The translations under genes and the position numbers were made by a program. This document shows, in pieces, positions 1 to 48,052 of a stretch of 64,000 nt of DNA. Within the stretch, counting starts at the first letter, position 1. Each line of letters begins with the position of its first letter. The notes below the pieces were generated by a model. That model worked only from the letters and a program-made list of their open reading frames with translations, ran no database searches and was not told the origin of the DNA. This stretch comes from Phyllobates terribilis (Eukaryota): assembly GCF_046119375.1 (NCBI RefSeq), contig NW_027362767.1:255688001-255752000 (forward strand), read 5' to 3'.

Positions 1-3000
1 ACAACTATGTCCCCCCTCATAACCTCTCACCTCATAAATAAAAAATGCCCCCCCTCATAACCCCTCACCTCATAAATAAAAAATGTCCCCCCTCATAACC
101 CCTCACCTCATAAATGAAAAATGTCCCCCCTCATAACCGCTCACCTCATCAATAAATAAAAAATGTCCCCCTCATAACCCCTCACCTCACAAATAAATAA
201 AAAATGTCCTTCCTCATAAATAAATAAAAAATGTCCCCCCTCATAACCCCTCACCTCATAAATAAAAAATGTCCCCCCTCATAACCACTCACCTCATCAA
301 TAAATAAAAAAAGATCCCCCTCATAACTCTTCCCCAATAAATAAAAAATGTCCCCCCTCATAACACCTCACCTCATCAATAAATAAAAAATGTCCCCCTC
401 ATAACCCCTCACCTCATCAATAAATAAAAAATGTCCCCCCTCATAAATAAATAAAAAATGTCCCCCCGCATAACCCCTCACCTCATAAATAAAAAATGTC
501 CCCCCTCATAACCGCTCACCTCATCAATAAATAAAAAATGCCCCCCTCATAACCCTTCCCCAATAAATAGAAAATGTCCCCCCTCATAACACCTCACCTC
601 ATCAATAAATAAAAAATGTCCCCCTCATAACCCCTCACCTCATAAATAAATAAAAAATGTCCCCCCTCATAACCGCTCACCTCATCAATAAATAAAAAAT
701 ATCCCCCTCATAACTCCTCACCTCATAAATAAATAACAAATGTCCCCCCTCATAACCCCTCACCTCATAAATAAAAAATGTCCCCCCTCATAACCCCTCA
801 CCTCATAAATGAAAAATGTCACCCCTCATAACCGCTCACCTCATCAATAAATAAAAAATGTCCCCCTCATAACCCCTCACCTCACAAATAAATAAAAAAT
901 GTCCCCCCTCATAAATAAATAAAAAATGTCCCCCCCTCATAACCCCTCACCTCATGAATAAAAAATGTCCCCCCTCATAACCGCTCACCTCATCAATAAA
1001 TAAAAAATGCCCCCCTCATAACCCTTCCCCAATAAATAAAAAATGTCCCCCCTCATAACACCTCACCTCATCAATAAATAAAAAATGTCCCCCTCATAAC
1101 CCCTCACCTCATAAATAAATAAAAAATGTCCCCCCTCATAACCGCTCACCTCATCAATAAATAAAAAATATCCCCCTCATATCCCCTCACCTCATAAATA
1201 AATAACAAATGTCCCCCCTCATAACCCCTCACCTCATAAATAAAAAATGCCCCCCCTCATAACTATGTCCCCCCTCATAACCTCTCACCTCACCTCATCA
1301 ATAAAAAATGCCCCCCCCTCATAACCCCTCACCTCATAAATAAAAAATGTCCCCCTAACCCCTCACCTCATAAATAAAAAATGTCCCCCCTCATAACCGC
1401 TCACCTCATCAATAAATAAATAATGTCCCCCTCATAACTCCTCACCTCATAAATAAATAAAAAATGTCCCCCCTCATAACTCCCCATCTCATAAATAAAA
1501 AATGTCCCCCCTCATAACCCCTCACCTCATAAATAAAAAATGTCCCCCTTCATAACCCCTCACCTCATCAATAAATAAAAAATGTCCCCCCTCATAACAC
1601 CTCACCTCATAAGTAAAAAATGTTTCCCCTCATAACCGCTCACCTCATCAATAAATAAAAAATGCCCCCCCTCATAACCCCTCACCTCATCAATAAATAA
1701 AAAATGTCCCCCCTCATAACCCCTCACCTCATGAATAAAAAATGTCCCCCCTCATAACCCCTCACCTCATAAATAAAAAAAGGCCCCCCTCATAACTGCT
1801 CACCTCATCAATAAATAAAAAATGTCCCCCTCATAACTCCTCACCTCATAAATAAATAAAAAATGCCCCCCCTCATAACAACTATGTCCCCCCTCATAAC
1901 CTCTCACCTCATAAATAAAAAATGGCCCCCCTCATAACCCCTCACCTCATAAATAAAAAATGCCCCCTCATAACAACTATGTCCCCCCTCATAACCGCTC
2001 ATCTCATAAATAAATAAAAAATGTCCCCCCTCATAATCCCTCACCTCATGAATAAAAAAAGGCCCCCCTCATCAATAAATAAAAAATGTCCCCCTCATAA
2101 CCTCTCACCTCATAAATAAAAATGTCCCCCCTCATAACCGCTCACCTCATCAATAAAAAATGTTCCCCTCATAACCCCTCACCTCATAAGTAAAAAATGT
2201 CCCCCCTCATAACCCCTCATCTCATAAATAAAAAATGCCCCCTCATAACAACTATGTCCCCCCTCATAACCGCTCACCTCATCAATAAATAAAAAATGTC
2301 CCCCTCATAACTCCTCACCTCATAAATAAATAAAAAATGCCCCCCCCATAACAACTATGTCCCCCCTCATAACCTCTCACCTCATAAATAAAAAATGTCC
2401 CCCCTCATAACCGCTCACCTCATTAATAAATAAAAAATGTCCCCCTCATAACCCCTCACCTCATAAATAAAAAATATCCCCCCTCATAACCCCTCACCTC
2501 ATAAATAAAAAATGCCCCCCTCATAACAACTATGTCCCCCCTCATAACCGCTCACCTCATCAATAAATACAAAATGTCCCCCTCATAACTCCTCACCTCA
2601 TAAATAAAAATGCCCCCTCTCATAACAACTATGTCCCCCCTCATAACCTCTCACCTCATAAATAAAAAATGTCCCCCCTCATAACCCCTCACCTCATAAA
2701 TAAAAAATGTCCCCCCTCATAACCCCTCACCTCATAAATGAAAAATGTCCCCCCTCATAACCGCTCACCTCATCAATAAATAAAAAATGTCCCCCTCATA
2801 ACCCCTCACCTCACAAATAAATAAAAAATGTCCCCCCTCATAAATAAATAAAAAATGTCCCCCCCTCATAACCCCTCACCTCATAAATAAAAAATGTCCC
2901 CCCTCATAACCGCTCACCTCATCAATAAATAAAAAATGCCCCCCTCATAACCCTTCCCCAATAAATAAAAAATGTCCCCCCTCATAACACCTCACCCCAT

Positions 3001-6000
3001 CAATAAATAAAAATGTCCCCCTCATAACCCCTCACCTCATAAATAAATAAAAAATGTCCCCCCTCATAACCGCTCACCTCATCAATAAATAAAAAATATC
3101 CCCCTCATATCCCCTCACCTCATAAATAAAAAATGTCCCCGCTCATAACCCCTCACCTCATAAATAAAAAATGCCCCCCCTCATTACTATGTCCCCCCTC
3201 ATAACCTCTCACCTCACCTCATCAATAAAAAATGCCCCCCCGTCATAACCCCTCACCTCATACATAAAAAATGTCCCCCTAACCCCTCACCTCATAAATA
3301 AAAAATGTCCCCCCTTATAACCGCTCACCTCATCAATAAATAATGTCCCCCTCATAACTCCTCACCTCATAAATAAATAAAAAATGTCCCCCCTCATAAC
3401 TCCCCATCTCATAAATAAAAAATGTCCCCCCTCATAACCCCTCACCTCATAAATAAAAAATGTCCCCCTTCATAACCCCTCACCTCATCAATAAATAAAA
3501 AATGTCCCCCCTCATAACACCTCACCTCATAAGTAAAAAATGTTTCCCCTCATAACCGCTCACCTCATCAATAAATAAAAAATGTCCCCCCTCATAACCC
3601 CTCACCTCATAAATAAAAAATGTCCCCCCTCATAACCCCTCACCTCATAAATAAAAAATGTCCCCCCTCATAACCCCTCACCTCATAAATAAAAAATGTC
3701 CCCCTCATAACCGCTCACCTCATCAATAAAAAATGTCCCCCCTCATAACCGCTCACCTCATCAATAAATAAAAAATGTCCCCCTCATAACCTCTCACCTC
3801 ATAAATAAAAAATGTCCCCCCTCATAACCACTCACCTCATAAATAAAAAATGCCCCCTCATAACAACTATGTCCCCCCTCATAACCGCTCATCTCATCAA
3901 TAAATAAAAAATGTCCCCCCTCATAATCCCTCACCTCATAAATAAAAAAAGGCCCCCCTCATAACTGCTCACCTCATCAATAAATAAAAAATGTCCCCCT
4001 CATAACTCCTCACCTCATAAATAAATAAAAAATGCCCCCCCTCATAACAACTATGTCCCCCCTCATACCCTCTCACCTCATAAATAAAAAATGGCCACCC
4101 TCATAACCCCTCACCTCATAAATAAAAAATGTCCCCCCTCATAACCCCTCACCTCATGAATAAAAAATGTCCCCCCTCATAACCCCTCACCTCATAAATA
4201 AAAAATGCCCCCCTCATAACAACTATGTCCCCCCTCATAACCGCTCACCTCATCAATAAATAAAAAATGTCCCCCTCATAACTCCTCACCTCATAAATAA
4301 AAATGCCCCCTCTCATAACAACTATGTCCCCCCTCATAACCTCTCACCTCATAAATAAAAAATGCCCCCCCTCATAACCCCTCACCTCATAAATAAAAAA
4401 TGTCCCCCCTCATAACCCCTCACCTCATAAATGAAAAATGTCCCCCCTCATAACCGCTCACCTCATCAATAAATAAAAAATGTCCCCCTCATAACCCCTC
4501 ACCTCACAAATAAATAAAAAATGTCCTTCCTCATAAATAAATAAAAAATGTCCCCCCTCATAACCCCTCACCTCATAAATAAAAAATGTCCCCCCTCATA
4601 ACCGCTCACCTCATCAATAAATAAAAAAAGATCCCCCTCATAACCCTTCCCCAATAAATAAAAAATGTCCCCCCTCATAACACCTCACCTCATCAATAAA
4701 TAAAAAATGTCCCCCTCATAACCCCTCACCTCATCAATAAATAAAAAATGTCCCCCCTCATAAATAAATAAAAAATGTCCCCCCGCATAACCCCTCACCT
4801 CATAAATAAAAAATGTCCCCCCTCATAACCGCTCACCTCATCAATAAATAAAAAATGCCCCCCTCATAACCCTTCCCCAATAAATAGAAAATGTCCCCCC
4901 TCATAACACCTCACCTCATCAATAAATAAAAAATGTCCCCCCTCATAACCCCTCACCTCATAAATGAAAAATGTCACCCCTCATAACCGCTCACCTCATC
5001 AATAAATAAAAAATGTCCCCCTCATAACCCCTCACCTCACAAATAAATAAAAAATGTCCCCCCTCATAAATAAATAAAAAATGTCCCCCCCTCATAACCC
5101 CTCACCTCATGAATAAAAAATGTCCCCCCTCATAACCGCTCACCTCATCAATAAATAAAAAATGCCCCCCTCATAACCCTTCCCCAATAAATAAAAAATG
5201 TCCCCCCTCATAACACCTCACCTCATCAATAAATAAAAAATGTCCCCCTCATAACCCCTCACCTCATAAATAAATAAAAAATGTCCCCCCTCATAACCGC
5301 TCACCTCATCAATAAATAAAAAATATCCCCCTCATATCCCCTCACCTCATAAATAAATAACAAATGTCCCCCCTCATAACCCCTCACCTCATAAATAAAA
5401 AATGCCCCCCCTCATAACTATGTCCCCCCTCATAACCTCTCACCTCACCTCATCAATAAAAAATGCCCCCCCCCTCATAACCCCTCACCTCATAAATAAA
5501 AAATGTCCCCCTAACCCCTCACCTCATAAATAAAAAATGTCCCCCCTCATAACCGCTCACCTCATCAACAAATAAATAATGTCCCCCTCATAACTCCTCA
5601 CCTCATAAATAAATAAAAAATGTCCCCCCTCATAACTCCCCATCTCATAAATAAAAAATGTCCCCCCTCATAACCCCTCACCTCATAAATAAAAAATGTC
5701 CCCCTTCATAACCCCTCACCTCATCAATAAATAAAAAATGTCCCCCCTCATAAAACCTCACCTCATAAGTAAAAAATGTTTCCCCTCATAACCGCTCACC
5801 TCATCAATAAATAAAAAATGCCCCCCCTCATAACCCCTCACCTCATAAATAAATAAAAAATGTCCCCCCTCATAACCCCTCACCTCATGCATAAAAAATG
5901 TCCCCCCTCATAACCCCTCACCTCATAAATAAAAAAAGGCCCCCCTCATAACTGCTCACCTCATCAATAAATAAAAAATGTCCCCCTCATAACTCCTCAC

Positions 6001-9000
6001 CTCATAAATAAATAAAAAATGCCCCCCCTCATAACAACTATGTCCCCCCTCATAACCTCTCACCTCATAAATAAAAAATGGCCCCCCTCATAACCCCTCA
6101 CCTCATAAATAAAAAATGCCCCCTCATAACAACTATGTCCCCCCTCATAACCGCTCATCTCATAAATAAATAAAAAATGTCCCCCCTCATAATCCCTCAC
6201 CTCATGAATAAAAAAAGGCCCCCCTCATCAATAAATAAAAAATGTCCCCCTCATAACCTCTCACCTCATAAATAAAAATGTCCCCCCTCATAACCGCTCA
6301 CCTCATCAATAAAAAATGTTCCCCTCATAACCCCTCACCTCATAAGTAAAAAATGTCCCCCCTCATAACCCCTCATCTCATAAATAAAAAATGCCCCCTC
6401 ATAACAACTATGTCCCCCCTCATAACCGCTCACCTCATCAATAAATAAAAAATGTCCCCCTCATAACTCCTCACCTCATAAATAAATAAAAAATGCCCCC
6501 CCCATAACAACTATGTCCCCCCTCATAACCTCTCACCTCATAAATAAAAAATGTCCCCCCTCATAACCGCTCACCTCATTAATAAATAAAAAATGTCCCC
6601 CTCATAACCCCTCACCTCATAAATAAAAAATATCCCCCCTCATAACCCCTCACCTCATAAATAAAAAATGCCCCCCTCATAACAACTATGTCCCCCCTCA
6701 TAACCGCTCACCTCATCAATAAATACAAAATGTCCCCCTCATAACTCCTCACCTCATAAATAAAAATGCCCCCTCTCATAACAACTATGTCCCCCCTCAT
6801 AACCTCTCACCTCATAAATAAAAAATGTCCCCCCTCATAACCCCTCACCTCATAAATAAAAAATGTCCCCCCTCATAACCCCTCACCTCATCAATAAATA
6901 AAAAATGTCCCCCTCATAACCCCTCACCTCACAAATAAATAAAAAATGTCCCCCCTCATAAATAAATAAAAAATGTCCCCCCCTCATAACCCCTCACCTC
7001 ATAAATAAAAAATGTCCCCCCTCATAACCGCTCACCTCATCAATAAATAAAAAATGCCCCCCTCATAACCCTTCCCCAATAAATAAAAAATGTCCCCCCT
7101 CATAACACCTCACCCCATCAATAAATAAAAATGTCCCCCTCATAACCCCTCACCTCATAAATAAATAAAAAATGTCCCCCCTCATAACCGCTCACCTCAT
7201 CAATAAATAAAAATATCCCCCTCATATCCCCTCACCTCATGAATAAAAAATGTCCCCCCTCATAACCCCTCACCTCATAAATAAAAAATGCCCCCCCCTC
7301 ATTACTATGTCCCCCCTCATAACCTCTCACCTCACCTCATCAATAAAAAATGCCCCCCCGTCATAACCCCTCACCTCATACATAAAAAATGTCCCCCTAA
7401 CCCCTCACCTCATAAATAAAAAATGTCCCCCCTTATAACCGCTCACCTCATCAATAAATAATGTCCCCCTCATAACTCCTCACCTCATAAATAAATAAAA
7501 AATGTTCCCCCTCATAACTCCCCATCTCATAAATAAAAAATGTCCCCCCTCATAACCCCTCACCTCATAAATAAAAAATGTCCCCCTTCATAACCCCTCA
7601 CCTCATCAATAAATAAAAAATGTCCCCCCTCATAACACCTCACCTCATAAGTAAAAAATGTTTCCCCTCATAACCGCTCAACTCATCAATAAATAAAAAA
7701 TGTCCCCCCTCATAACCCCTCACCTCATAAATAAATAAAAAATGTCCCCCCTCATAACCCCTCACCTCATAAATAAAAAATGTCCCCCCTCATAACCCCT
7801 CACCTCATAAATAAAAAATGTCCCCCTCATAACCGCTCACCTCATCAATAAAAAATGTCCCCCCTCATAACCGCTCACCTCATCAATAAATAAAAAATGT
7901 CCCCCTCATAACCTCTCACCTCATAAATAAAAAATGTCCCCCCTCATAACCACTCACCTCATAAATAAAAAATGCCCCCTCATAACAACTATGTCCCCCC
8001 TCATAACCGCTCATCTCATCAATAAATAAAAAATGTCCCCCCTCATAAATAAAAAAAGGCCCCCCTCATAACTGCTCACCTCATCAATAAATAAAAAATG
8101 TCCCCCTCATAACTCCTCACCTCATAAATAAATAAAAAATGCCCCCCCCTCATAACAACTATGTCCCCCCTCATACCCTCTCACCTCATAAATAAAAAAT
8201 GGCCACCCTCATAACCCCTCACCTCATAAATAAAAAATGTCCCCCCTCATAACCCCTCACCTCATAAATAAAAAATGTCCCCCCTCATAACCCCTCACCT
8301 CATAAATAAAAAATGCCCCCCTCATAACAACTATGTCCCCCCTCATAACCGCTCACCTCATCAATAAATAAAAAATGTCCCCCTCATAACTCCTCACCTC
8401 ATAAATAAAAATGCCCCCTCTCATAACAACTATGTCCCCCCTCATAACCTCTCACCTCATAAATAAAAAATGCCCCCCCTCATAACCCCTCACCTCATAA
8501 ATAAAAAATGTCCCCCCTCATAACCCCTCACCTCATAAATGAAAAATGTCCCCCCTCATAACCGCTCACCTCATCAATAAATAAAAAATGTCCCCCTCAT
8601 AACCCCTCACCTCACAAATAAATAAAAAATGTCCTTCCTCATAAATAAATAAAAAATGTCCCCCCTCATAACCCCTCACCTCATAAATAAAAAATGTCCC
8701 CCCTCATAACCGCTCACCTCATCAATAAATAAAAAATGTCCCCCTCATAACCCTTCCCCAATAAATAAAAAATGTCCCCCCTCATAACACCTCACCTCAT
8801 CAATAAATAAAAAATGTCCCCCTCATAACCCCTCACCTCATCAATAAATAAAAAATGTCCCCCCTCATAAATAAATAAAAAATGTCCCCCCGCATAACCC
8901 CTCACCTCATAAATAAAAAATGTCCCCCCTCATAACCGCTCACCTCATCAATAAATAAAAAATGCCCCCCTCATAACACTTCCACAATAAATAGAAAATG

Positions 9001-9393
9001 TCCCCCCTCATAACACCTCACCTCATCAATAAATAAAAAATGTCCCCCTCATAACCCCTCACCTCATAAATAAATAAAAAATGTCCCCCCTCATAACCGC
9101 TCACCTCATCAATAAATAAAAAATATCCCCCTCATAACTCCTCACCTCATAAATAAATAACAAATGTCCCCCCTCATAACCCCTCACCTCATAAATAAAA
9201 AATGCCCCCCCTCATAACTATGTCGCCCCTCATAACCTCTCACCTCATAAATAAAAAATGGCCCCCCCTCATAACCCCTCACCTCATAAATAAAAAATGT
9301 CCCCCTAACCCCTCACCTCATAAATAAAAAATGTCCCCCCTCATAACCGCTCACATCATCAATAAATAAAAAATGTCCCCCTCATAACCCCTC
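1..9393. repeat. 38-bp C/A-rich satellite array, left block (runs off the window start)
   Basis: Consensus ATAAATAAAAAATGTCCCCCCTCATAACCCCTCACCTC repeated with small indels. The rare variant GTCCTTCCTC recurs at 206, 4523 and 8631, indicating a ~4.1-4.3 kb higher-order repeat. Confidence 0.97.
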
Positions 9394-9489
9394 TGTAACG
9401 GGTCTGGGAGGCGGAACCTCTGAGCTACTATACAAGGGGGCGGTCCTTGCAAGGGAGCGGGTGGCGACCAGGGAAGACGGGCAGGCAGT

Positions 9490-9697
9490 CACAGCAGGTG
9501 ACCGGGACAGTCTCTGAGTGAACGGGCTGGAGGTCACGGCAAGTGACCGGGGCAGTCTCTGGATGAACGGGCAGGAGGTCACGGCAAGTGACCGGGGCAG
9601 TCTCTGGATGAACGGGCAGGAGGTCACGGCAAGTGACCGGGGCAGTCTCTGGATGAACGGGCAGGAGGTCACGGCAAGTGACCGGGGCAGTCTCTGG
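9490..9697. repeat. 45-bp tandem repeat inside the LTR (~4.5 copies)
   Basis: Unit GTGACCGGGGCAGTCTCTGGATGAACGGGCAGGAGGTCACGGCAA; it gives the 15-aa periodicity of the ORF-track peptides here. Confidence 0.9.
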
Positions 9698-9724
9698 GTA
9701 AAGGGTAGTTATGACCTGTGATGG

Positions 9725-10280
9725 CAGAGCCTCCAGGTAGGCTAGCGGGCAGATGGTAGATGTGTGCTCCCAGGTGAGCAAGCGAGAGTCTCTGGAATGG
9801 CAGGTGGTCACAGCACGTGACGGCGGAGCCTCCAGGTAGGCTAGCAGGCAGGTAACAGGTGTGCGCTCCCAGGTGAGCGGGCAGGAGTCTCTGGAATGGC
9901 AGGTGGTCACAGCACGTGACGGCGGAGCCTCCAGGTAGGCTAGCAGGCAGGTAGCAGGTGTGCGCTCCCAGGTGAGCGGGCAGGAGTCTCTGGAATGGCA
10001 GGTGGTCACAGCACGTGACGGCGGAGCCTCCAGGTAGGCTAGCAGGCAGGTAACAGGTGTGCGCTCCCAGGTGAGCGGGCAGGAGTCTCTGGAATGGCAG
10101 GTGGTCACAGCACGTGACGGCGGAGCCTCCAGGTAGGCTAGCAGGCAGGTAGCAGGTGTGCGCTCCCAGGTGAGCGGGCAGGAGTCTCTGGAATGGCAGG
10201 TGGGCACAGCACGTGACGGCGGAGCCTCCAGGTAGGCTAGCAGGCAGGTAGCAGATGTGCGCTCCCAGGTGAGCGGGCAA
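9725..10280. repeat. 99-bp tandem repeat inside the LTR (~5.5 copies)
   Basis: GAGCCTCCAGGTAGGCTAGC recurs every ~99 bp; it gives the 33-aa periodic ORFs. Confidence 0.9.
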
Positions 10281-10689
10281 GCTGGTCCATAGACAGACTG
10301 ACAGGAGTAGGAAGGCAGACCGTCGGACCTCAGGCTAGCAAGCAGGTAGGAGGAATGTCAGGCAGGAAACAGACAGCAAACTGGCAGGATTCTGGCAGGT
10401 AACTGGCAACGGGACCTGAGGGCTGAAGCAGAGTAGTGAACAGTGCAACAACATTGCTCGGGCACCTCCATTTTGGAGGAGGTGCCTTATATATGGTGAA
10501 GTCCTCCGGCCATTGGCCGGGGACTCCTTAGGACGGCGCGCGCGGCCCCTTTAAGAGGGAGGGAGCGCGCGCGCCCTAAGCACAGTGGCCGGGAAGCAGC
10601 GCGCGCTGCCAGCAAAGCGGGAGGAGGACGCAGAGGGGAGAGGGGAACAGCGTCCCTGCCTAACAGAGGGCAGGGACGCCGGCGCTACA

Positions 10690-12791
10690 CCCTCAACTCA
10701 TAAATAAATAAAATGTCTCCCCTCATAACCCCTCACCTCATAAGTAAAAAATGTCCCCCCCTCACAACCCCTCACCTCATAAATAAAAAATGTCCCCCCC
10801 TCATAACCGCTCACCTCATCAATAAATAAAAAATGTCCCCCTTATAACCCCTCACCTCATAAATAAAAAATGGCCCCCTCATAACCCCTCACCTCATAAA
10901 TAAAAAATGTCCCCCCTCATAACCGCTCACCTCATCAATAAATAAAAAATGTCCCCCTCATAACAACCTCACCTCATAAATAAAAAATGGCCCCCCTCAT
11001 AACCGCTCACCTCATAAATAAAAAATGGCCCCCCTCATAACCCCTCACCCCATAAATAAAAAATGGCCCTCCTCATAACCTCTCACTTCATAAGTAAAAA
11101 ATGTCCCCCCCTCATAACCCGACTTCATGAATAAAAAATGCCCCCCACCTCATGAATAAAAAATGAATACCTCCCTCATAACCCCTCACCTCATATATAA
11201 TAAATGTCCCCCCTCATAACCTCTCACCTCATAAATAAAAAATGGCCCCCCCTCATAACCCCTCACCTCATAAATAAAAAATGTCCCCCTAACCCCTCAC
11301 CTCATAAATAAAAAATGTCCTGCCTCATAACCGCTCACATCATCAATAAATAAAAAATATCCCCCTCATAACCCCTCAACTCATAAATAAATAAAATGTC
11401 TCCCCTCATAACCCCTCACCTCATAAATAATGTCCCCCCCTCACAACCCCTCACCTCATAAATAAAAAATGTCCCCCCCTCATAACCGCTCACCTCATCA
11501 ATAAATAAGAAATGTCCCCCTTATAACCCCTCACCTCATAAATAAAAAATGGCCCCCTCATAACCCCTCACCTCATAAATAAAAAATGTCCCCCCTCATA
11601 ACCGCTCACCTCATCAATAAATAAAAAATGTCCCCCTCATAACAACCTCACCTCATAAATAAAAAATGGCCCCCCTCATAACCGCTCACCTCATAAATAA
11701 AAAATGGCCCCCCTCATAACCCCTCACCCCATAAATAAAAAATGGCCCTCCTCATAACCTCTCACTTCATAAGTAAAAAATGTCCCCCCCTCATAACCCG
11801 ACTTCATAAATAAAAAATGCCCCCCACCTCATGAATAAAAAATGAATACCTCCCTCATAACCCCTCACCTCATATATAATAAATGTCCCCCCTCATAACC
11901 CCTCACCTCATAAATAAAAAATGGCCCCCCCTCATAACCCCTCACCTCATAAATAAAAAATGTCCCCCTAACCCCTCACCTCATAAATAAAAAATGTCCC
12001 CCCTCATAACCGCTCACATCAATAAATAAAAAATATCCCCCTCATAACCCCTCAACTCATAAATAAATAAAATGTCTCCCCTCATAACCCCTCACCTCAT
12101 AAATAATGTCCCCCCCTCACAACCCCTCACCTCATAAATAAAAAATGTCCCCCCCTCATAACCGCTCACCTCATCAATAAATAAAAAATGTCCCCCTTAT
12201 AACCCCTCACCTCATAAATAAAAAATGGCCCCCCTCATAACCGCTCACCTCATCAATAAATAAAAAATGTCCCCCTCATAACAACCTCACCTCATAAATA
12301 AAAAATGGCCCCCCTCATAACCGCTCACCTCATAAATAAAAAATGGCCCCCCTCATAACCCCTCACCCCATAAATAAAAAATGGCCCTCCTCATAACCTC
12401 TCACTTCATAAGTAAAAAATGTCCCCCCCTCATAACCCGACTTCATAAATAAAAAATGCCCCCCACCTCATGAATAAAAAATGAATACCTCCCTCATAAC
12501 CCCTCACCTCATATATAATAAATGTCCCCCCTCATAACCCCTCATCTTATAAAGAAAAAATGTCCCAGCTCATAACCGCTCACCTCATCAATAAATAAAA
12601 AATGTCCCCCCTCATAACCCCTCACCTCATAAATAAAAAATGTCCCCCCTCATAACCCCTCACCTCATAAATAAAAAATGCCCCCCCTCATAACAACTAT
12701 GTCCCCACCTCATAACCCCTCACCTCATAAATAAAAAATGGCCCACCTCATAACCCCTAACCTCATAAATAATTAATAAATGTCCCCCCTC
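10690..12791. repeat. 38-bp satellite, right block with a ~0.65-kb higher-order unit
   Basis: Same monomer as the left block. Marker CATAACCCGACTTCAT at 11113, 11792 and 12431. Confidence 0.95.
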
Positions 12792-13390
12792 GCGCCTCTT
12801 GGCACTTTTTACCTCTGTGCAAGAAGGGCTCCGCTGGACCAATGCGTGTTCATGTGATTTGATGAAAAATCGCTTTGAGGGCTTTTTTTCCTGATCACCC
12901 ATTACATATGGGTGTGTGATAAAACGGATGTGGCGCGGTCACCATCTGTACGGCGCCCGTTTTAGCGGATACATTGCAATTATGAACATAGATAGCTATT
13001 TAGCATTGTAATAGTTTTTAATGGATGTCATATGGAGAACACAAAAGAAAAATCCTTTATTTTTTAAGGAATGATTTTTTCCTTTGACTGTATACAGACG
13101 GTCATAATGAAAGAATTGCGTATGTGACTGGCTCTGTGTGTTTGGAGTGTGATTTTGTCCGCCATGATGGGTCCGTGGCATACAGACTGATACGCTAGTC
13201 TGAACAAGCCCTTAGGCAGATTTTACACCTGTGCTTGGATCACAATGCCAGGCCCAATCTCCGGGTCACATGAACACAGATAACTGACGAATAGGCATAT
13301 ATAGGGTTGTGGAGTTTAGGTTAAGGGACCCGCGGTCAGTCCAGAAGTCGCAGCCCGTGATATTTGGATGTCTGAACACTGCCTCACATA

Positions 13391-41400: not shown

Positions 41401-44400
41401 TATGCACATTGCATTCAGAGACAGCAAGCGTAAACGCACGGTCTATACAGGAGATTATTGGACAAATCACTGAATTTGAGTTTTTCTTTCAGTCCTATTG
41501 TCCTTGGTGTATAACATCTGACCACTCCCCCCCTCCCGGTGTATAATCTCCAGCCCCTCGCCATGCCGCCTGCCTTTACTAACATGTGACAGAACGTCTG
41601 GTGGTGCAGAGCTCTCCGATACCAGCGCGGTCCTGTAATAGGAGCCACCGGGGTAACAAGTCTGGTCATAACATTTCTTGCTCCTGAATCTTCCCCCATC
41701 ACCTGTAATGATGATATTAGTGATATTATTGAGAAGTGGAAGGAACCGCAGCAACTCAGCCACAAGGGGAGACCCCATAACATTACAGAACGGGGGGCCG
41801 AGTGCTGGGGAGCAGAGGGCAGAAAAGTCACCACTGCTCTGCAGACCCCATAACTGCAGAGTCCAGTCCTCCTCTGGTATAATATCAGCACAAACAGCGC
41901 CCCCACCAGCAGCTTCATGGCCGAGCAGCTGCATGCAGCAGTACATCACCAAGCACAATGCTGAGCATCGGATGGAGTGGTGTAAAGCCGCCACCACTGG
42001 ACTCTGGAGGAGACGTGTTCTCTCTATCCGGCGTCTGATGGAGGAGTCTGGGTTTGGTGATTCCAGGAGAACGTTACCCCCTGACTGCATTGTGCCCGTT
42101 GTGCAGATGGTGGTGGAGGATAATGCTATGGGCTGTTATCAGGGGTCGGCCTCGGCCTCTGAATCCCAGGGAAGGGAAATCTTAATCTTCTTCACAAGAC
42201 ATTGTGGACAATCATAGCTTCCAGCTTTGTGGGAACAGTTTGGGGGAGACCCTTCTTTGTTCCCCATTACTGTGCCCAGTGCACAAGATCCATACAGACA
42301 TGGGGGGGGTGGAGAACATGAGCGGCCGCACAGAGTCAGGACTTCAGCCCCATCTCATAACGGAGATTGTGACCCCGGGCTCCCCCCAACATCAGGGTCT
42401 GACCCCACAAATGCTCTTATGGATGAAGGGGCAAAAATTCCCACAGACACCTCCAAAATCTTGTAGAAATCCTTCCCAGAAGAGGGGAAGCCGTTATATC
42501 TGCAGAGGGCAGACTCCATATTATGTCTATGGATGTAGGATGGGAGGTGAGAAAAGCCCCTGGATGTGTAATGTGGAGGAGGCACATACTTTTCTCCATA
42601 TAGTGTGTGTAAAATATATATATATATATATATTTATTTATTTATTACTGTATATGGACTGCCACCCGCACTGACCTCGGCACACTGGCACACACTTGCC
42701 CATACTGAAGAACCAGGAGTGGACCTCTTTTGTGAAACAGATATCTGCAGCAGTAGGGGTCCTAAGAGAAGGCACAGACATGTCAGTAAGAGCCGCGATA
42801 TCCATGGATGCCTCCGGTGGTACATGGGGAGAACACTCACCACCGCATCGTGCTCAGGTCCCACAGGTGCTTGAACTTTAGGATACCTGGAATACAGAGG
42901 AGAATATTTGTTACCTTCTTTTCATGGCATTCCAACTGTTGCAAAACTACAACTCCTGACGCAAGGATATGGCCCAGCACCACCATATATCTAAACATAC
43001 ACTCGTGCCAAGGTCCCAAAAGAGACAATGTAGAAAGAAAGGAAGTGGAGGGAGAACAGGCACCAAGCGTAATGAATAATCAAGTATAGAGGCAGTGTAT
43101 TGAAAACATAGTGTAAATTTTATTATAGTCAGGCCATACAATACCACTTGTTAAAAGGACATATAAAGCAGAAAAACAAACATCTGGACAAAGATGACCC
43201 CTTAAAAAGGTTCTAGCATATATCCAAAAAGTACTGAATACACCTAAATTCATATATCAAAAAATGCACCACCGATATGGTATAAGACTAAATAATTCTA
43301 ATAATGTAGACATATGGCTAAAATGTATCCCCCAAATAAATTATACATTATAAAGATATAGAATAAATAGATCATTTGAACAGGAGGAAAGAAGATATGT
43401 CTATGTTCTCCCTAAAGCGGACAGTACCCAATAGGTCATAGTGGGAAGGGGAGAATAAGTAAATAAAGTATACCAACCATGTAAGGTCACAGTGGAGAAA
43501 AAGGGGGATGACAACAGTGCTAACCCTACGCGTTACGCCATTAGGTTCTGGCTTCCTCAGGGGATATTCTCCCCTTCCCACTATGACCTATTGGGTACTG
43601 TCCGCTTTAGGGAGAACATAGACATATCTTCTTTCCTCCTGTTCAAATGATCTATTTATTCTATATCTTTATAATGTATAATTTATTTGGGGGATACATT
43701 TTAGCCATATGTCTACATTATTAGAATTATTTAGTCTTATACCATATCGGTGGTGCATTTTTTGATATATGAATTTAGGTGTATTCAGTACTTTTTGGAT
43801 ATATGCTAGAACCTTTTTAAGGGGTCATCTTTGTCCAGATGTTTGTTTTTCTGCTTTATATGTCCTTTTAACTATGTTTTTTAACAAGTGGTATTGTATG
43901 GCCTGACTATAATAAAATTTACACTATGTTTTCAATACACTGCCTCTATACTTGATTATTCATTACGCTTGGTGCCTGTTCTCCCTCCACTTCCTTTCTT
44001 TCTACAAAACTACAACTCCTAGCATGAGCTGCGTGCAGTTGTCAGTGCAAACAAGGAGTTGTAGCATCTCAACAGCGGGAAAGCCACAGGCTCGGGACCA
44101 TTCAGTAATGGGTTCACCGGCAATGACACAAGTCTGTCCCAGTCCCTGTCTCCCTGGTGTCGGAGGCCAGACCATGAGTGCAGGGTGAGCCCCATGACGA
44201 GGGAGGCTTACCCCACAGGTGAGGGTCGTCCATACAGGACTGGTGGTTGGAGATGGTGATGAGCGGAGTGTCCGGCTGCCGCTTCTCGATCAGCTCATAT
44301 AACACTTCTTTGTTGTGCACCCGCAGACTGTTCATGTACTCTGCGAGAACAAGTGACAGCTGCAGTCATTATAGTTACACTGAGTTGTCGGATTAACAGA

Positions 44401-45354
44401 AATTCCGGACTATTGGAATTATACAGACATTGAGACCTAAACCGTTATGTCACCCACTGCCGGGGGTCCATGGGACAATTTTTGCCATGTGGCAGATTAT
44501 CAGTATTTCCAGGCCACTGGACCCAATGTCCTCCTAATGCCTTCACACTACAACTCTCAGCATGTCTAAACAATTATAGAATCTGGCCAATCCCTTTATT
44601 TTTTAGCTCTTTACTTTCGGATTGGGAAAAGCAGGCGATTCATACATTTATGTTTTTGATTAATTTTTACTTTTTTTTTTTCCCCTTTATCCCCTCGGGG
44701 GACTTGACCTTGTGATTGTTTGTGCGCTTGTACTATATACAGCACATATCACAATCTCCTATGGAGCCGGGCTCCACTTCATGGGAGTACAAAGATGGCA
44801 GCAATCGTGTGTGTGATTGACAGCAGGGTGAAACAGCAGGGAAAGGGTTAAAGGTGTAATCCAATCTCATAAAGTGATGGCACATTGCTAGGAAACGCAA
44901 TCACTTTACAATTGGTGGGGATCCAACCTCCGATCCTCAGAATGAAGGATCCATTGCAAAGTAAAGGGGACGCAGTGATAAATCAGCGCTACCGGCCCTT
45001 TAATATCCAGTTGGGGCGACCTAGAGGGGACGCAGTGCTGAATAAGCACTATGGTCCCGCAGGTCAGACCTCCTGACAACCATAAAGCGATGACGTTGAT
45101 GATGTGCCATCCCCTTTACGGAATATGGATCCCATGAAAGGTCTTCTCTGCTACCGTGAGCTACTCATAATACAAGGTTACATAAAGTCTATAAGACATG
45201 CTGGGAGTTGTAGTCACAACAGCTATGAGAAAGCCAAATACTTACTGGTCCATATCCAGCTGTAAGTGCCCACCAGCCCGGTGATCACGGTGCTGGTCAT
45301 GTGCCGGTATACGTGTGACTTGACAGGGAACGGCCAGCTCACCACCAGCGGCAT
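38435..45354 (-). CDS. TAFAZZIN: Tafazzin (cardiolipin transacylase), 10 coding exons, 262 aa
   Basis: Exons (-): 45354-45246, 44340-44212, 42886-42841, 42761-42676, 41089-41009, 40857-40816, 40734-40672, 40110-40058, 39799-39722, 38536-38435. All GT-AG; total 789 nt. Motifs: [10 protein letters not shown], the [10 protein letters not shown]4D acyltransferase motif, [11 protein letters not shown] and WVHVFPEG. Confidence 0.97.
41460..42605 (+). mobile_element. Old, heavily degenerate Tc1-like element in a TAFAZZIN intron
   Basis: Peptide remnants [14 protein letters not shown] and DCIVPVV...MGC resemble Tc1 KHNAKRRLEWCK and CIVPTVK...WGC. The right end CATACTTTTCTCCATATAGTG is TIR-like. The left boundary is approximate. 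Confidence 0.6.
42958..44004. mobile_element. Insertion with a 16-bp TSD and inverted-repeat architecture; probable Penelope-like retroelement remnant
   Basis: Direct repeat CAAAACTACAACTCCT at 42942-42957 and 44005-44020. Inverted arms at 43029-43457 and 43565-44006, with a hammerhead motif in the spacer. Confidence 0.65.
43524..43563 (-). ncRNA. Minimal type I hammerhead ribozyme motif with a core variant (GAAA to GUAA)
   Basis: - strand reads CCC CUGAGGA A GCC agaaccuaau GGC GUAA CGCGUA GGG: stem I CCC/GGG, CUGANGA box, stem II GCC/GGC, palindromic ACGCGU stem III and a GUA cleavage triplet. Confidence 0.7.
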
Positions 45355-46500: not shown

Positions 46501-46953
46501 TCTGATCTCAATGCACAGCTGAGGGGTTGTTGCACTGTATGGTGACATAAGAAAGCGGCGTCCATCTGTAATATGGGAATAGAAGAGGGGTCCTTATAGC
46601 CGCAGTTATTGGGTGGTCCTGACACCACAGCCCCCATACAGCCTGTGTGTACATGGATGAGCAATGTATGATCTCCTGTTACTACAAGGCGTCCATGTAT
46701 CTGTTCTCTGTATACTCATGTAACCATCCATAGGGCAGCCATTCACCGCGGGCACCCCGAAATCTGCTGCCCCTGGAGCTGATGAGCAGGAAACCCTAAT
46801 GGCTGCAGAGTGGACCCCGGGGACGACATATTGTGTATTATGTGCTGATATACGAAGCGCAGAGCGTGAGAAATGTAATGTCTCCATCATCTATCTGCTG
46901 AGTACAGTGCAGTATAACTGCGATTCTGCTAGAACTTGGAGCCCTGGCCCTAA

Positions 46954-47422
46954 GGCTGCGTTCAGACGGACGTATTCATGGTCCACGTACAGGCCTGCAG
47001 CGCCCCGGCGGTCCACGTACAGGCCTGCTGCGCCCCGGCGGTCCACGTACAGGCCTGCAACGCCCCGACGGTCCACGTACAGGCCTGCAGCGCCCCGGCG
47101 GTCCACGTACAGGCCTGCTGCGCCCCGGCGGTCCACGTACAGGCCTGCTGCGCCCCGGCGGTCCACGTACAGGCCTGCAGCGCCCCGGCGGTCCACGTAC
47201 AGGCCTGCAGCGCCCCGGCGGTCCACGTACAAGGCCTGCAGCGCCCCAGCGGTCCATGTACAGGCCTGCAGCGCCCTGGTGGTCCACGTACAGACCTGCA
47301 GCGCCCTGGCGGTCCACCTACAGGCCTGCAGTGCCCCGAGAGATATGACGTAAGTTTGGGGTGGGAGAGCAGGCATTACAGGCTGTATATAAACCGTGAA
47401 ATACGCCCGTCTGATCGCGGCT
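46954..47422. mobile_element. Harbinger-like MITE containing a 30-bp minisatellite
   Basis: TIRs GGCTGCGTTCAGACGGACGTATT / AATACGCCCGTCTGATCGCGGCT, flanked by TAA and TTA. Confidence 0.6.
46980..47336. repeat. 30-bp GC-rich minisatellite (~12 copies)
   Basis: Unit GTCCACGTACAGGCCTGCAGCGCCCCGGCG. Confidence 0.95.
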
Positions 47423-47767: not shown

Positions 47768-48052
47768 AGCGCCATTTATTAGAAAGTCATTTATATGATC
47801 CGCGTGTACGCTGAGCTTTGGTCTTGGGGTGCTTCACAGTTTTGCCCGGTTTCAAGTGTCACACTTCTGGAATCATCCAGCGTAGCCCAGTGGCGTGCCA
47901 GCTGTTGGAAAACTACAACTCCCAGCATGCCCTGACATCTTGCACACCACTGATGTAGGATCAGGATCCGCAGGACTTGTGTACGTTACCTGCAGCCGGC
48001 ACTTGATCATTTCAGCAGGTACTATGATTATGGCTGCTCACAGTCCTGCCAG
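47768..48052 (-). pseudogene. Internally deleted tandem-duplicate fragment of the SLC25A20-like gene
   Basis: 47885-48052 is a diverged copy of 51893-52059 (3' part of exon 4 plus the start of intron 4). 47768-47885 is a diverged copy of the end of exon 9 (LRWMIPEV* vs LHWMIPDM*), the 3'UTR and AATAAA. Confidence 0.8.

Follow-up and report, generated by a model that had tools for sequence, protein, structure and literature searches.

A hammerhead-like fold with a family-wide GUAA box in an intronic stub of a Neptune-type Penelope-like element

Hammerhead motifs are known from the pseudo-LTRs of metazoan Penelope-like elements (PLEs), and hammerheads of the minimal kind are slow and show no activity in monomeric form (Cervera and de la Pena 2014, PMC4209133). 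Variants with a small stem III have been tied to PLEs and are reported to work as dimers (Lunse, Weinberg and Breaker 2017, via PMC6765202), and canonical hammerheads are described as universal in the EN+ clades, where their function is unclear (Craig et al. 2021, PMC8557442). Among PLEs, only Neptune and Poseidon have been found in vertebrates (bioRxiv 10.64898/2026.07.22.740005), and in PAc, a Poseidon element of Anolis, cleavage was unnecessary in vitro, where dead-ribozyme mutants inserted unimpaired (Frangieh et al. 2024, PMC11167929). Mutational data quoted in PMC4075628 put the cost of changes at A13 at 10-100-fold and at A14 at >100-fold, and have G17 block cleavage.

We analyzed a window of 64,000 nucleotides from Phyllobates terribilis, the minus strand of which carries a hammerhead-like motif of the minimal type I at 43524..43563, with U in place of A13 (a GUAA box). 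From 43563 to 43524 the strand reads CCC CUGAGGA A GCCA GAACCUAA UGGC GUAA CGCG U A GGG, that is, the CCC 5' flank of stem I (43563-43561), the CUGANGA box in the form CUGAGGA (43560-43554), an extra A at position 10 (43553), a 4-bp stem II of GCCA/UGGC (43552-43537), the GUAA box (43536-43533), CGCG-U-A (43532-43527), and the GGG that closes stem I (43526-43524); stem III is the palindromic ACGCGU, and the predicted cut site falls between 43527 and 43526. The cleavage site has the U16.1-H17 form (U-A in the window copy), and the place of the G12 A13 A14 A15.1 box is taken by GUAA, here and family-wide. A dimer through the palindromic stem III is predicted by computed folding of the motif, and a 56-nt stretch folded alone does no better than its shuffles (z -0.74). 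The GUAA pattern has 124 matches in the 10.6-Gb genome and 0 in the reversed control, so the motif is not a chance occurrence. An Rfam search of the window gave no hammerhead match, which refutes nothing because five of five canonical-core motifs on the same scaffold were missed likewise. An earlier note on this DNA had given the same minus-strand letters, GUAA for GAAA included, and they proved exact on rereading; it had also placed the motif in the loop of a large hairpin, which we confirm (a 107-nt loop between two arms), and in sense within intron 2 of a host gene, which the exon frame and a Pfam Acyltransferase match in exon 2 bear out. Its view of the motif as hammerhead-like, of the minimal type I carried by Penelope-like elements and with U for A13, is supported, and the impairment of cutting that it expected from A13U would, by the data quoted in PMC4075628, be 10-100-fold.

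The insertion itself is an ordinary Penelope stub. It consists of a sense pseudo-LTR of a Neptune-type element (43029..43563, minus strand), which close copies delimit from the putative transcription start to a first 3' end site (TTTCTACA) and which has a private 13-nt deletion near 43150, followed by a 71-nt tail (42958..43028, minus strand), likewise defined by close copies, that ends at a second 3' end site; together they span 606 nt (43563-42958), with the motif at the 5' end. In 20 close copies the unit starts with TACCCC just before the motif and ends either at 535 nt (6/20, tail absent) or at ~606-626 nt (11/20, tail present), the other 3 being broken off earlier. Next to the stub, on the plus strand, lies an inverted, 5'-truncated copy of the pseudo-LTR (43565..44006), without tail and without hammerhead, which begins at the first 3' end site, stops 107 nt short of the start of the unit and forms the second arm of the hairpin; the 107-nt loop (43458..43564, minus strand) is the 5' part of the pseudo-LTR that this copy lacks. 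The arms, 43029-43457 and 43565-44006, are 100% complementary except for the 13-nt gap in one of them. A target-site duplication (TSD) of 14 nt, AGGAGTTGTAGTTT (16 nt with two ambiguous letters), flanks the whole on the minus strand, its upstream copy at 44007..44020 and its downstream copy at 42944..42957. Pseudo-LTRs, inverted truncated copy, tail and TSD are thus all found, as in EN+ PLEs. As to whether other animals have the insertion, a single joint came up (42956-44006, side 21); a clean empty site would skip 1063 nt, and this joint fails to fit one.

Although the window arms are identical, they share six substitutions that occur in none of 16 other close copies, and the arms of other hairpin copies are 94-98.6% alike; the identity would reflect either that the stub inserted very recently, from a source not among the sampled copies, or homogenization of the arms. 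The target site belongs to a short dispersed repeat with a GGAGTTGTAGT core, copies of which stand in either orientation around the gene (42925-42957, 44006-44090, 44547-44567, 45194-45214 and 47887-47940). The host gene, on the minus strand, has the coding part of its exon 1 at 45246..45354, exon 2 with the Pfam match at 44212..44340 and exon 3 at 42841..42886, its first five exons translating in one frame and the insertion lying within intron 2 (44211-42887); this acyltransferase gene is likely tafazzin (TAFAZZIN). The sole possible effect of the insertion on the host would be through a 436-bp perfect duplex in intron 2. Elsewhere in the window, a GC-rich 30-nt tandem repeat stands upstream of the host gene (46950-47370), and a long C/A-rich satellite with a GC skew of about -0.82 fills positions 1-12800, broken at ~9395-10690 by a GC-rich insert with a TGTAAC start, a GCTACA end and internal repeats, which we presume to be LTR-like.

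The parent of the stub is a protein-coding element. One whole element (locus L151) runs TATA box, motif, pseudo-LTR, ORF1, ORF2, 3' UTR, TATA box, motif, pseudo-LTR, and its relatives have an ORF2 of the layout RT-CxxC-GIY-YIG, with the C-terminal GIY-YIG after the RT that marks EN+ PLEs. The RVT_1 match in L056 has an E value of 2e-6, below the curated cut-off, and the GIY-YIG matches have 5e-5 in L193, above the cut-off, and 0.002 in L303. We assign the elements to the Neptune type because they carry a CX2-5CxxC linker between RT and EN (PMC8557442), which takes the form CX2CX2C (CGGCNVC) in L039, L050 and relatives. Units of the window type lie ~1 kb downstream of RT/GIY-YIG ORFs in L055, L056 and relatives, and the window unit shares 91% identity with the pseudo-LTR that follows the L055 ORF. 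We rejected a non-LTR retrozyme, of which tandem short non-coding hammerhead units are expected: the single unit here is the pseudo-LTR of a protein-coding element. Of 34 motifs, 28 have a TATA box upstream, for the most part 37-43 nt ahead of C3, and from its position the start of transcription probably falls at TACCCC. ORF2 is open over 829 aa in L303 and L304, both with a GUAA box, and many copies have identical endonuclease scores; by these data, the elements still spread.

Several loci deserve mention in their own right. L303-L310 and L312-L341 belong to a very young Neptune family of near-identical copies, some on unplaced contigs, in which GUAA goes with C7. At L269 a tandem array of at least 14 units of ~49 nt, each with a hammerhead-like GAUA motif, lies ~2090-2840 nt downstream of the endonuclease. 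Near-identical GAUA-A17 motifs occur at 0.5-1 Mb spacing (616.6-636.7 Mb of contig C5 and 927.79 Mb of contig C3 in genome G000), and two of these loci (L141 and L142) have no RT match.

We find the GUAA box throughout the family. With position 13 left free, U stands there in 12 of 12 exact matches. When the copies of three families were gathered by the DNA downstream of the cut site, without using the motif, 74 of 74 readable copies had U13 and none had GAAA: 20/20 in the window family (19 GUAA, 1 GUCU; 3 of its 23 rows are without the motif region), 25/25 in a second family (22 GUAA, 2 AUAA, 1 GUCA; 5 of 30 rows were left out as truncated or deleted, or because they showed one locus a second time) and 29/29 in a third (1 of 30 rows being a second view of a locus). 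GUAA is also retained in subfamilies in which the rest of the pseudo-LTR is only ~70% alike. Since U13 is family-wide, the window copy inherited GUAA from its source element.

The three-way junction of stems I and II and the palindromic stem III is upheld by covariation. In a set of 35 distinct motifs that have one or other of the two most frequent stem II lengths, 89.7% of cells are paired against 84.2% after shuffling, with 28 both-side changes; 0 of 500 shuffles reached as high a value and slid controls pair 31-43%, with shuffles that ignore relatedness and several columns fixed by the search pattern. Among motifs gathered from the protein side (described below), stem II pairs 3, 5 and 6 covary, and stem I occurs as TGCC/GGC and as GCCC/GGGC, two of its pairs showing compensatory changes. 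Together, these compensatory changes point to a fold. We also rejected three accounts of the variant boxes: covariation of G7 with U13, since a second GUAA family has C7; a core locked by extension of stem II in a shifted register, for which the pairing probability is 0.01 with GUAA, and two related copies have a non-pairing GCAA; and the idea that GAUA contains an inserted U13a and is cut at a displaced site, which the covariation of stem I excludes.

Across the lineage, the canonical box is rare. A genome-wide search with the scaffold pattern CCUGANGA-A-GCC-N8-12-GGC-box-CGCGU returned 757 GA(C/U/G)A, 9 G(C/G)AA and 17 GAAA motifs, and a stricter pattern at least 124 GUAA, so that GAAA makes up about 2% of scaffold motifs under patterns that fix much of the scaffold. 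Among the 100 matches listed of the 757, all are GACA or GAUA save one GAGA. With the core left free, the 100 listed of 152 matches comprise 81 U13, 14 GAUA, 5 GACA and 0 GAAA by hand count. Nine of the 17 GAAA motifs have G17, in several the loop is that of a variant family, and the only one whose protein could be used groups within the GACA elements.

We also sampled from the protein side, taking 60 of 150 scored loci (150 of 50,763 endonuclease candidates were scored, from 100% to ~49% identity) and scanning downstream of the endonuclease with the box free apart from A15.1. This gave the motif in 34 of the 60 loci, a chance match in one other, and 6 chance-level matches in the reversed control; a profile recovered 8 further readable motifs, and none was readable in 18 of the 60 loci. 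The resulting 42 boxes are 28 GAUA, 5 GUAA, 4 GGAA, 2 GCAA, 1 GACA, 1 AAUA, 1 GGUA and 0 GAAA. G17 is present in 26 of the 34 motifs; by type, A17 accompanies GUAA in 28/28 and G17 accompanies GAUA in 20/24. Other core positions are near invariant (C3, U4, G5 and A9 in 34/34, G12 in 33/34), and the family-level boxes all keep exactly one A at positions 13 and 14, a box with no A there occurring in 1/42. The distribution of the boxes follows clades, and a tree of 54 rows requires at least 7 box changes; being unrooted, it does not show that GAAA was lost several times. As the query came from a GAUA family, the statement that GAAA is avoided is confined to this Neptune lineage, which almost never carries it. 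A metagenome scan gave 12 scaffold matches, 6 of which are chance matches in GC-rich DNA without stem I; the other 6, from an AT-rich organism (L231, L234, L238, L239, L241 and L242), have the scaffold with TATA upstream and AATAAA downstream, and GAAA with C17 in 5 of the 6.

The 5' ends of insertions were placed relative to the cut site in a set that pools all loci, including those picked through the motif itself. Distinct ends fall at -48..-33 in 41 cases, inside the motif in 7 and at -5..-2 in 4; BLAST put two more at +5 and +8, and inspection moves one of these, L170, to a start at +1 or +2. The L166/L167 fold-back, one arm of which ends at -2, is not among the pooled rows. Most ends thus lie upstream of the motif, away from the cut site, which makes uncut RNA the source of most insertions. 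The four near-site ends, 2-5 nt from the cut site, are inverted arms; three of them keep 4-5 nt upstream of the cut, preceded by TACCC, and are for that reason assigned to uncut RNA, and the fourth (L063) is ambiguous by microhomology. At the fold-back junctions of L134 (= L012), L319 and L182, TACCC is joined to (C)GTAGGG and the hammerhead core is dropped, as if the reverse transcriptase had jumped a closed stem I on uncut RNA. A search for a canonical-core family as a control for this comparison, with one pattern, gave one match and no such family. The small number of cut-site insertions does not prove that there is no cutting, because cut RNA lacks a cap and may vanish; the RNA of the element may be cut on rare occasions.

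The motif is the 5' end of a Neptune-type PLE stub in a family where GUAA is the rule, and we consider it probable that the fold is kept at the start of the RNA with self-cutting strongly slowed or off. Transcription would start at TACCCC, immediately before stem I, and reverse transcription would begin at either internal site, ~535 or ~606 nt downstream, and run to the uncut 5' end; with both nicked target strands primed, one copy would be completed and the other halted 107 nt short, leaving the hairpin. Cutting 38 nt from the cap would be expected to decap the mRNA of the element, which may be why sublineages settle on cores one letter off GAAA (GUAA, GAUA, GACA, GGAA and GCAA, often with G17), the fold perhaps persisting because it has a structural task, for instance in protein binding or RNA dimerization. 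More tentatively, we propose a pseudo-ribozyme in a deep, still-spreading lineage, in which selection would keep the fold and the CUGANGA strand and repeatedly steer GAAA one letter off, sparing the 5' cap. GUAA is the mildest of the box changes, and because it is so and always goes with a cleavable A17 (28/28 types), slow or protein-assisted cutting is possible.

An unlikely alternative is that the core tolerates the variant boxes, so that GUAA, and perhaps GAUA and GACA, still allow efficient cutting in vivo, either in dimers or with the protein of the element bound. The near invariance of the other core positions, the single A that family boxes keep at 13 or 14 and the constant pairing of GUAA with A17 speak for such a reading; the Anolis ribozyme cut only with protein (PMC11167929), a U13a insertion in the GAAA box was judged tolerable (PMC3088659), and L170 starts at the cut site, with four inverted arms ending <=5 nt away. 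However, three of those four arms stem from uncut RNA, the cleavage-blocking G17 is found in 26 of the 34 protein-side motifs, changes at A14 cost >100-fold (PMC4075628), and the covariation of stem I rules out the register shift that would turn GAUA into a U13a insertion.

It is quite improbable that the ribozyme is long dead and that its sequence is retained solely at the DNA level, as a piece of the core promoter immediately after the start site. The motif does sit directly at the putative start, at a fixed distance from the TATA box, and many families are doubly off-consensus (GAUA with G17, 20/24 types), but the compensatory changes seen in stem II (three pairs) and stem I (two pairs) point to a fold, and the L134, L319 and L182 junctions look as if the reverse transcriptase had skipped a closed stem I; moreover, free positions 13 and 14 should give many A-less boxes, which we see in 1/42.

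That A13U arose or was selected in the window copy for the protection of host pre-mRNA, as the earlier note had suggested from the sense orientation in intron 2, can hardly be right, given U13 in 74/74 copies of three families, in 12/12 matches with the position free and in subfamilies only ~70% alike. The comparison of GUAA with GAAA over genomic copies that the note itself had proposed goes against its idea of selection, and its other suggestion, decay of this copy alone, fails on a box common to the whole family. The intron would also hardly have been at risk, because single minimal hammerhead monomers showed no detectable cleavage even with an intact core (PMC4209133).

A lineage that goes on amplifying with covarying stems, and in which the canonical box is nearly absent, uncouples the fold from catalysis in vivo; it also supplies five natural boxes for assay. 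Descriptors based on GAAA miss ~900 motifs of this scaffold in one genome. Should the pseudo-ribozyme proposal be true, the motif would be a conserved RNA element, non-catalytic or licensed by protein, and its variants a natural allelic series for the function of Penelope hammerheads.

In the hammerhead and Penelope literature searched, we met no match to a lineage-wide off-consensus box, and Lunse 2017, as well as figures and supplements, may cover variants; the texts of PMC9901934, PMC2553840, PMC2837043, PMC6155905 and PMC6765202 yielded no usable data on A13U. Single-letter core departures are described in natural motifs by Perreault et al. (2011, PMC3088659), as here; the rare variants in that text are U3-A8, A6C, A6a, U13a and U15.1-A16.1, and it names no A13U, A13G, A13C, A14U or A14C families. 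With the pseudo-LTR hammerheads of metazoan PLEs (PMC4209133) the window motif shares type I topology, a short stem I, the extra base at position 10, G10.1-C11.1, a palindromic stem III, its place in a pseudo-LTR and mostly single dispersed copies. In contrast to the window lineage with its ~2% GAAA, the descriptor given there and all its alignment rows have GAAA (one AGAAA), U3-A8 being a core variant noted there.

The insertion resembles that of PAc (PMC11167929) in its two internal 3' end sites with a tail between them, which match the two internal sites where reverse transcription was shown to start in PAc, in the extension of both target strands, and in an origin from uncut RNA. Unlike PAc, whose hammerhead is active with C3-G8 and overlaps the start of the ORF, the window lineage has its motif ~700 nt before ORF1, along with a 71-nt non-coding tail, a Neptune linker and the upstream ORF1 itself. 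The Neptune-clade EN+ elements described by Craig et al. (2021, PMC8557442) and Arkhipova et al. (2013, PMC3846280) have the same C-terminal GIY-YIG and CX2-5CxxC linker, and the insertions in those accounts have the same inverted 5'-truncated copy beside the pseudo-LTR, tail at one end, TSD and TATA box in the pseudo-LTR. Against the canonical hammerheads of PMC8557442, the window lineage has the fold without the canonical box.
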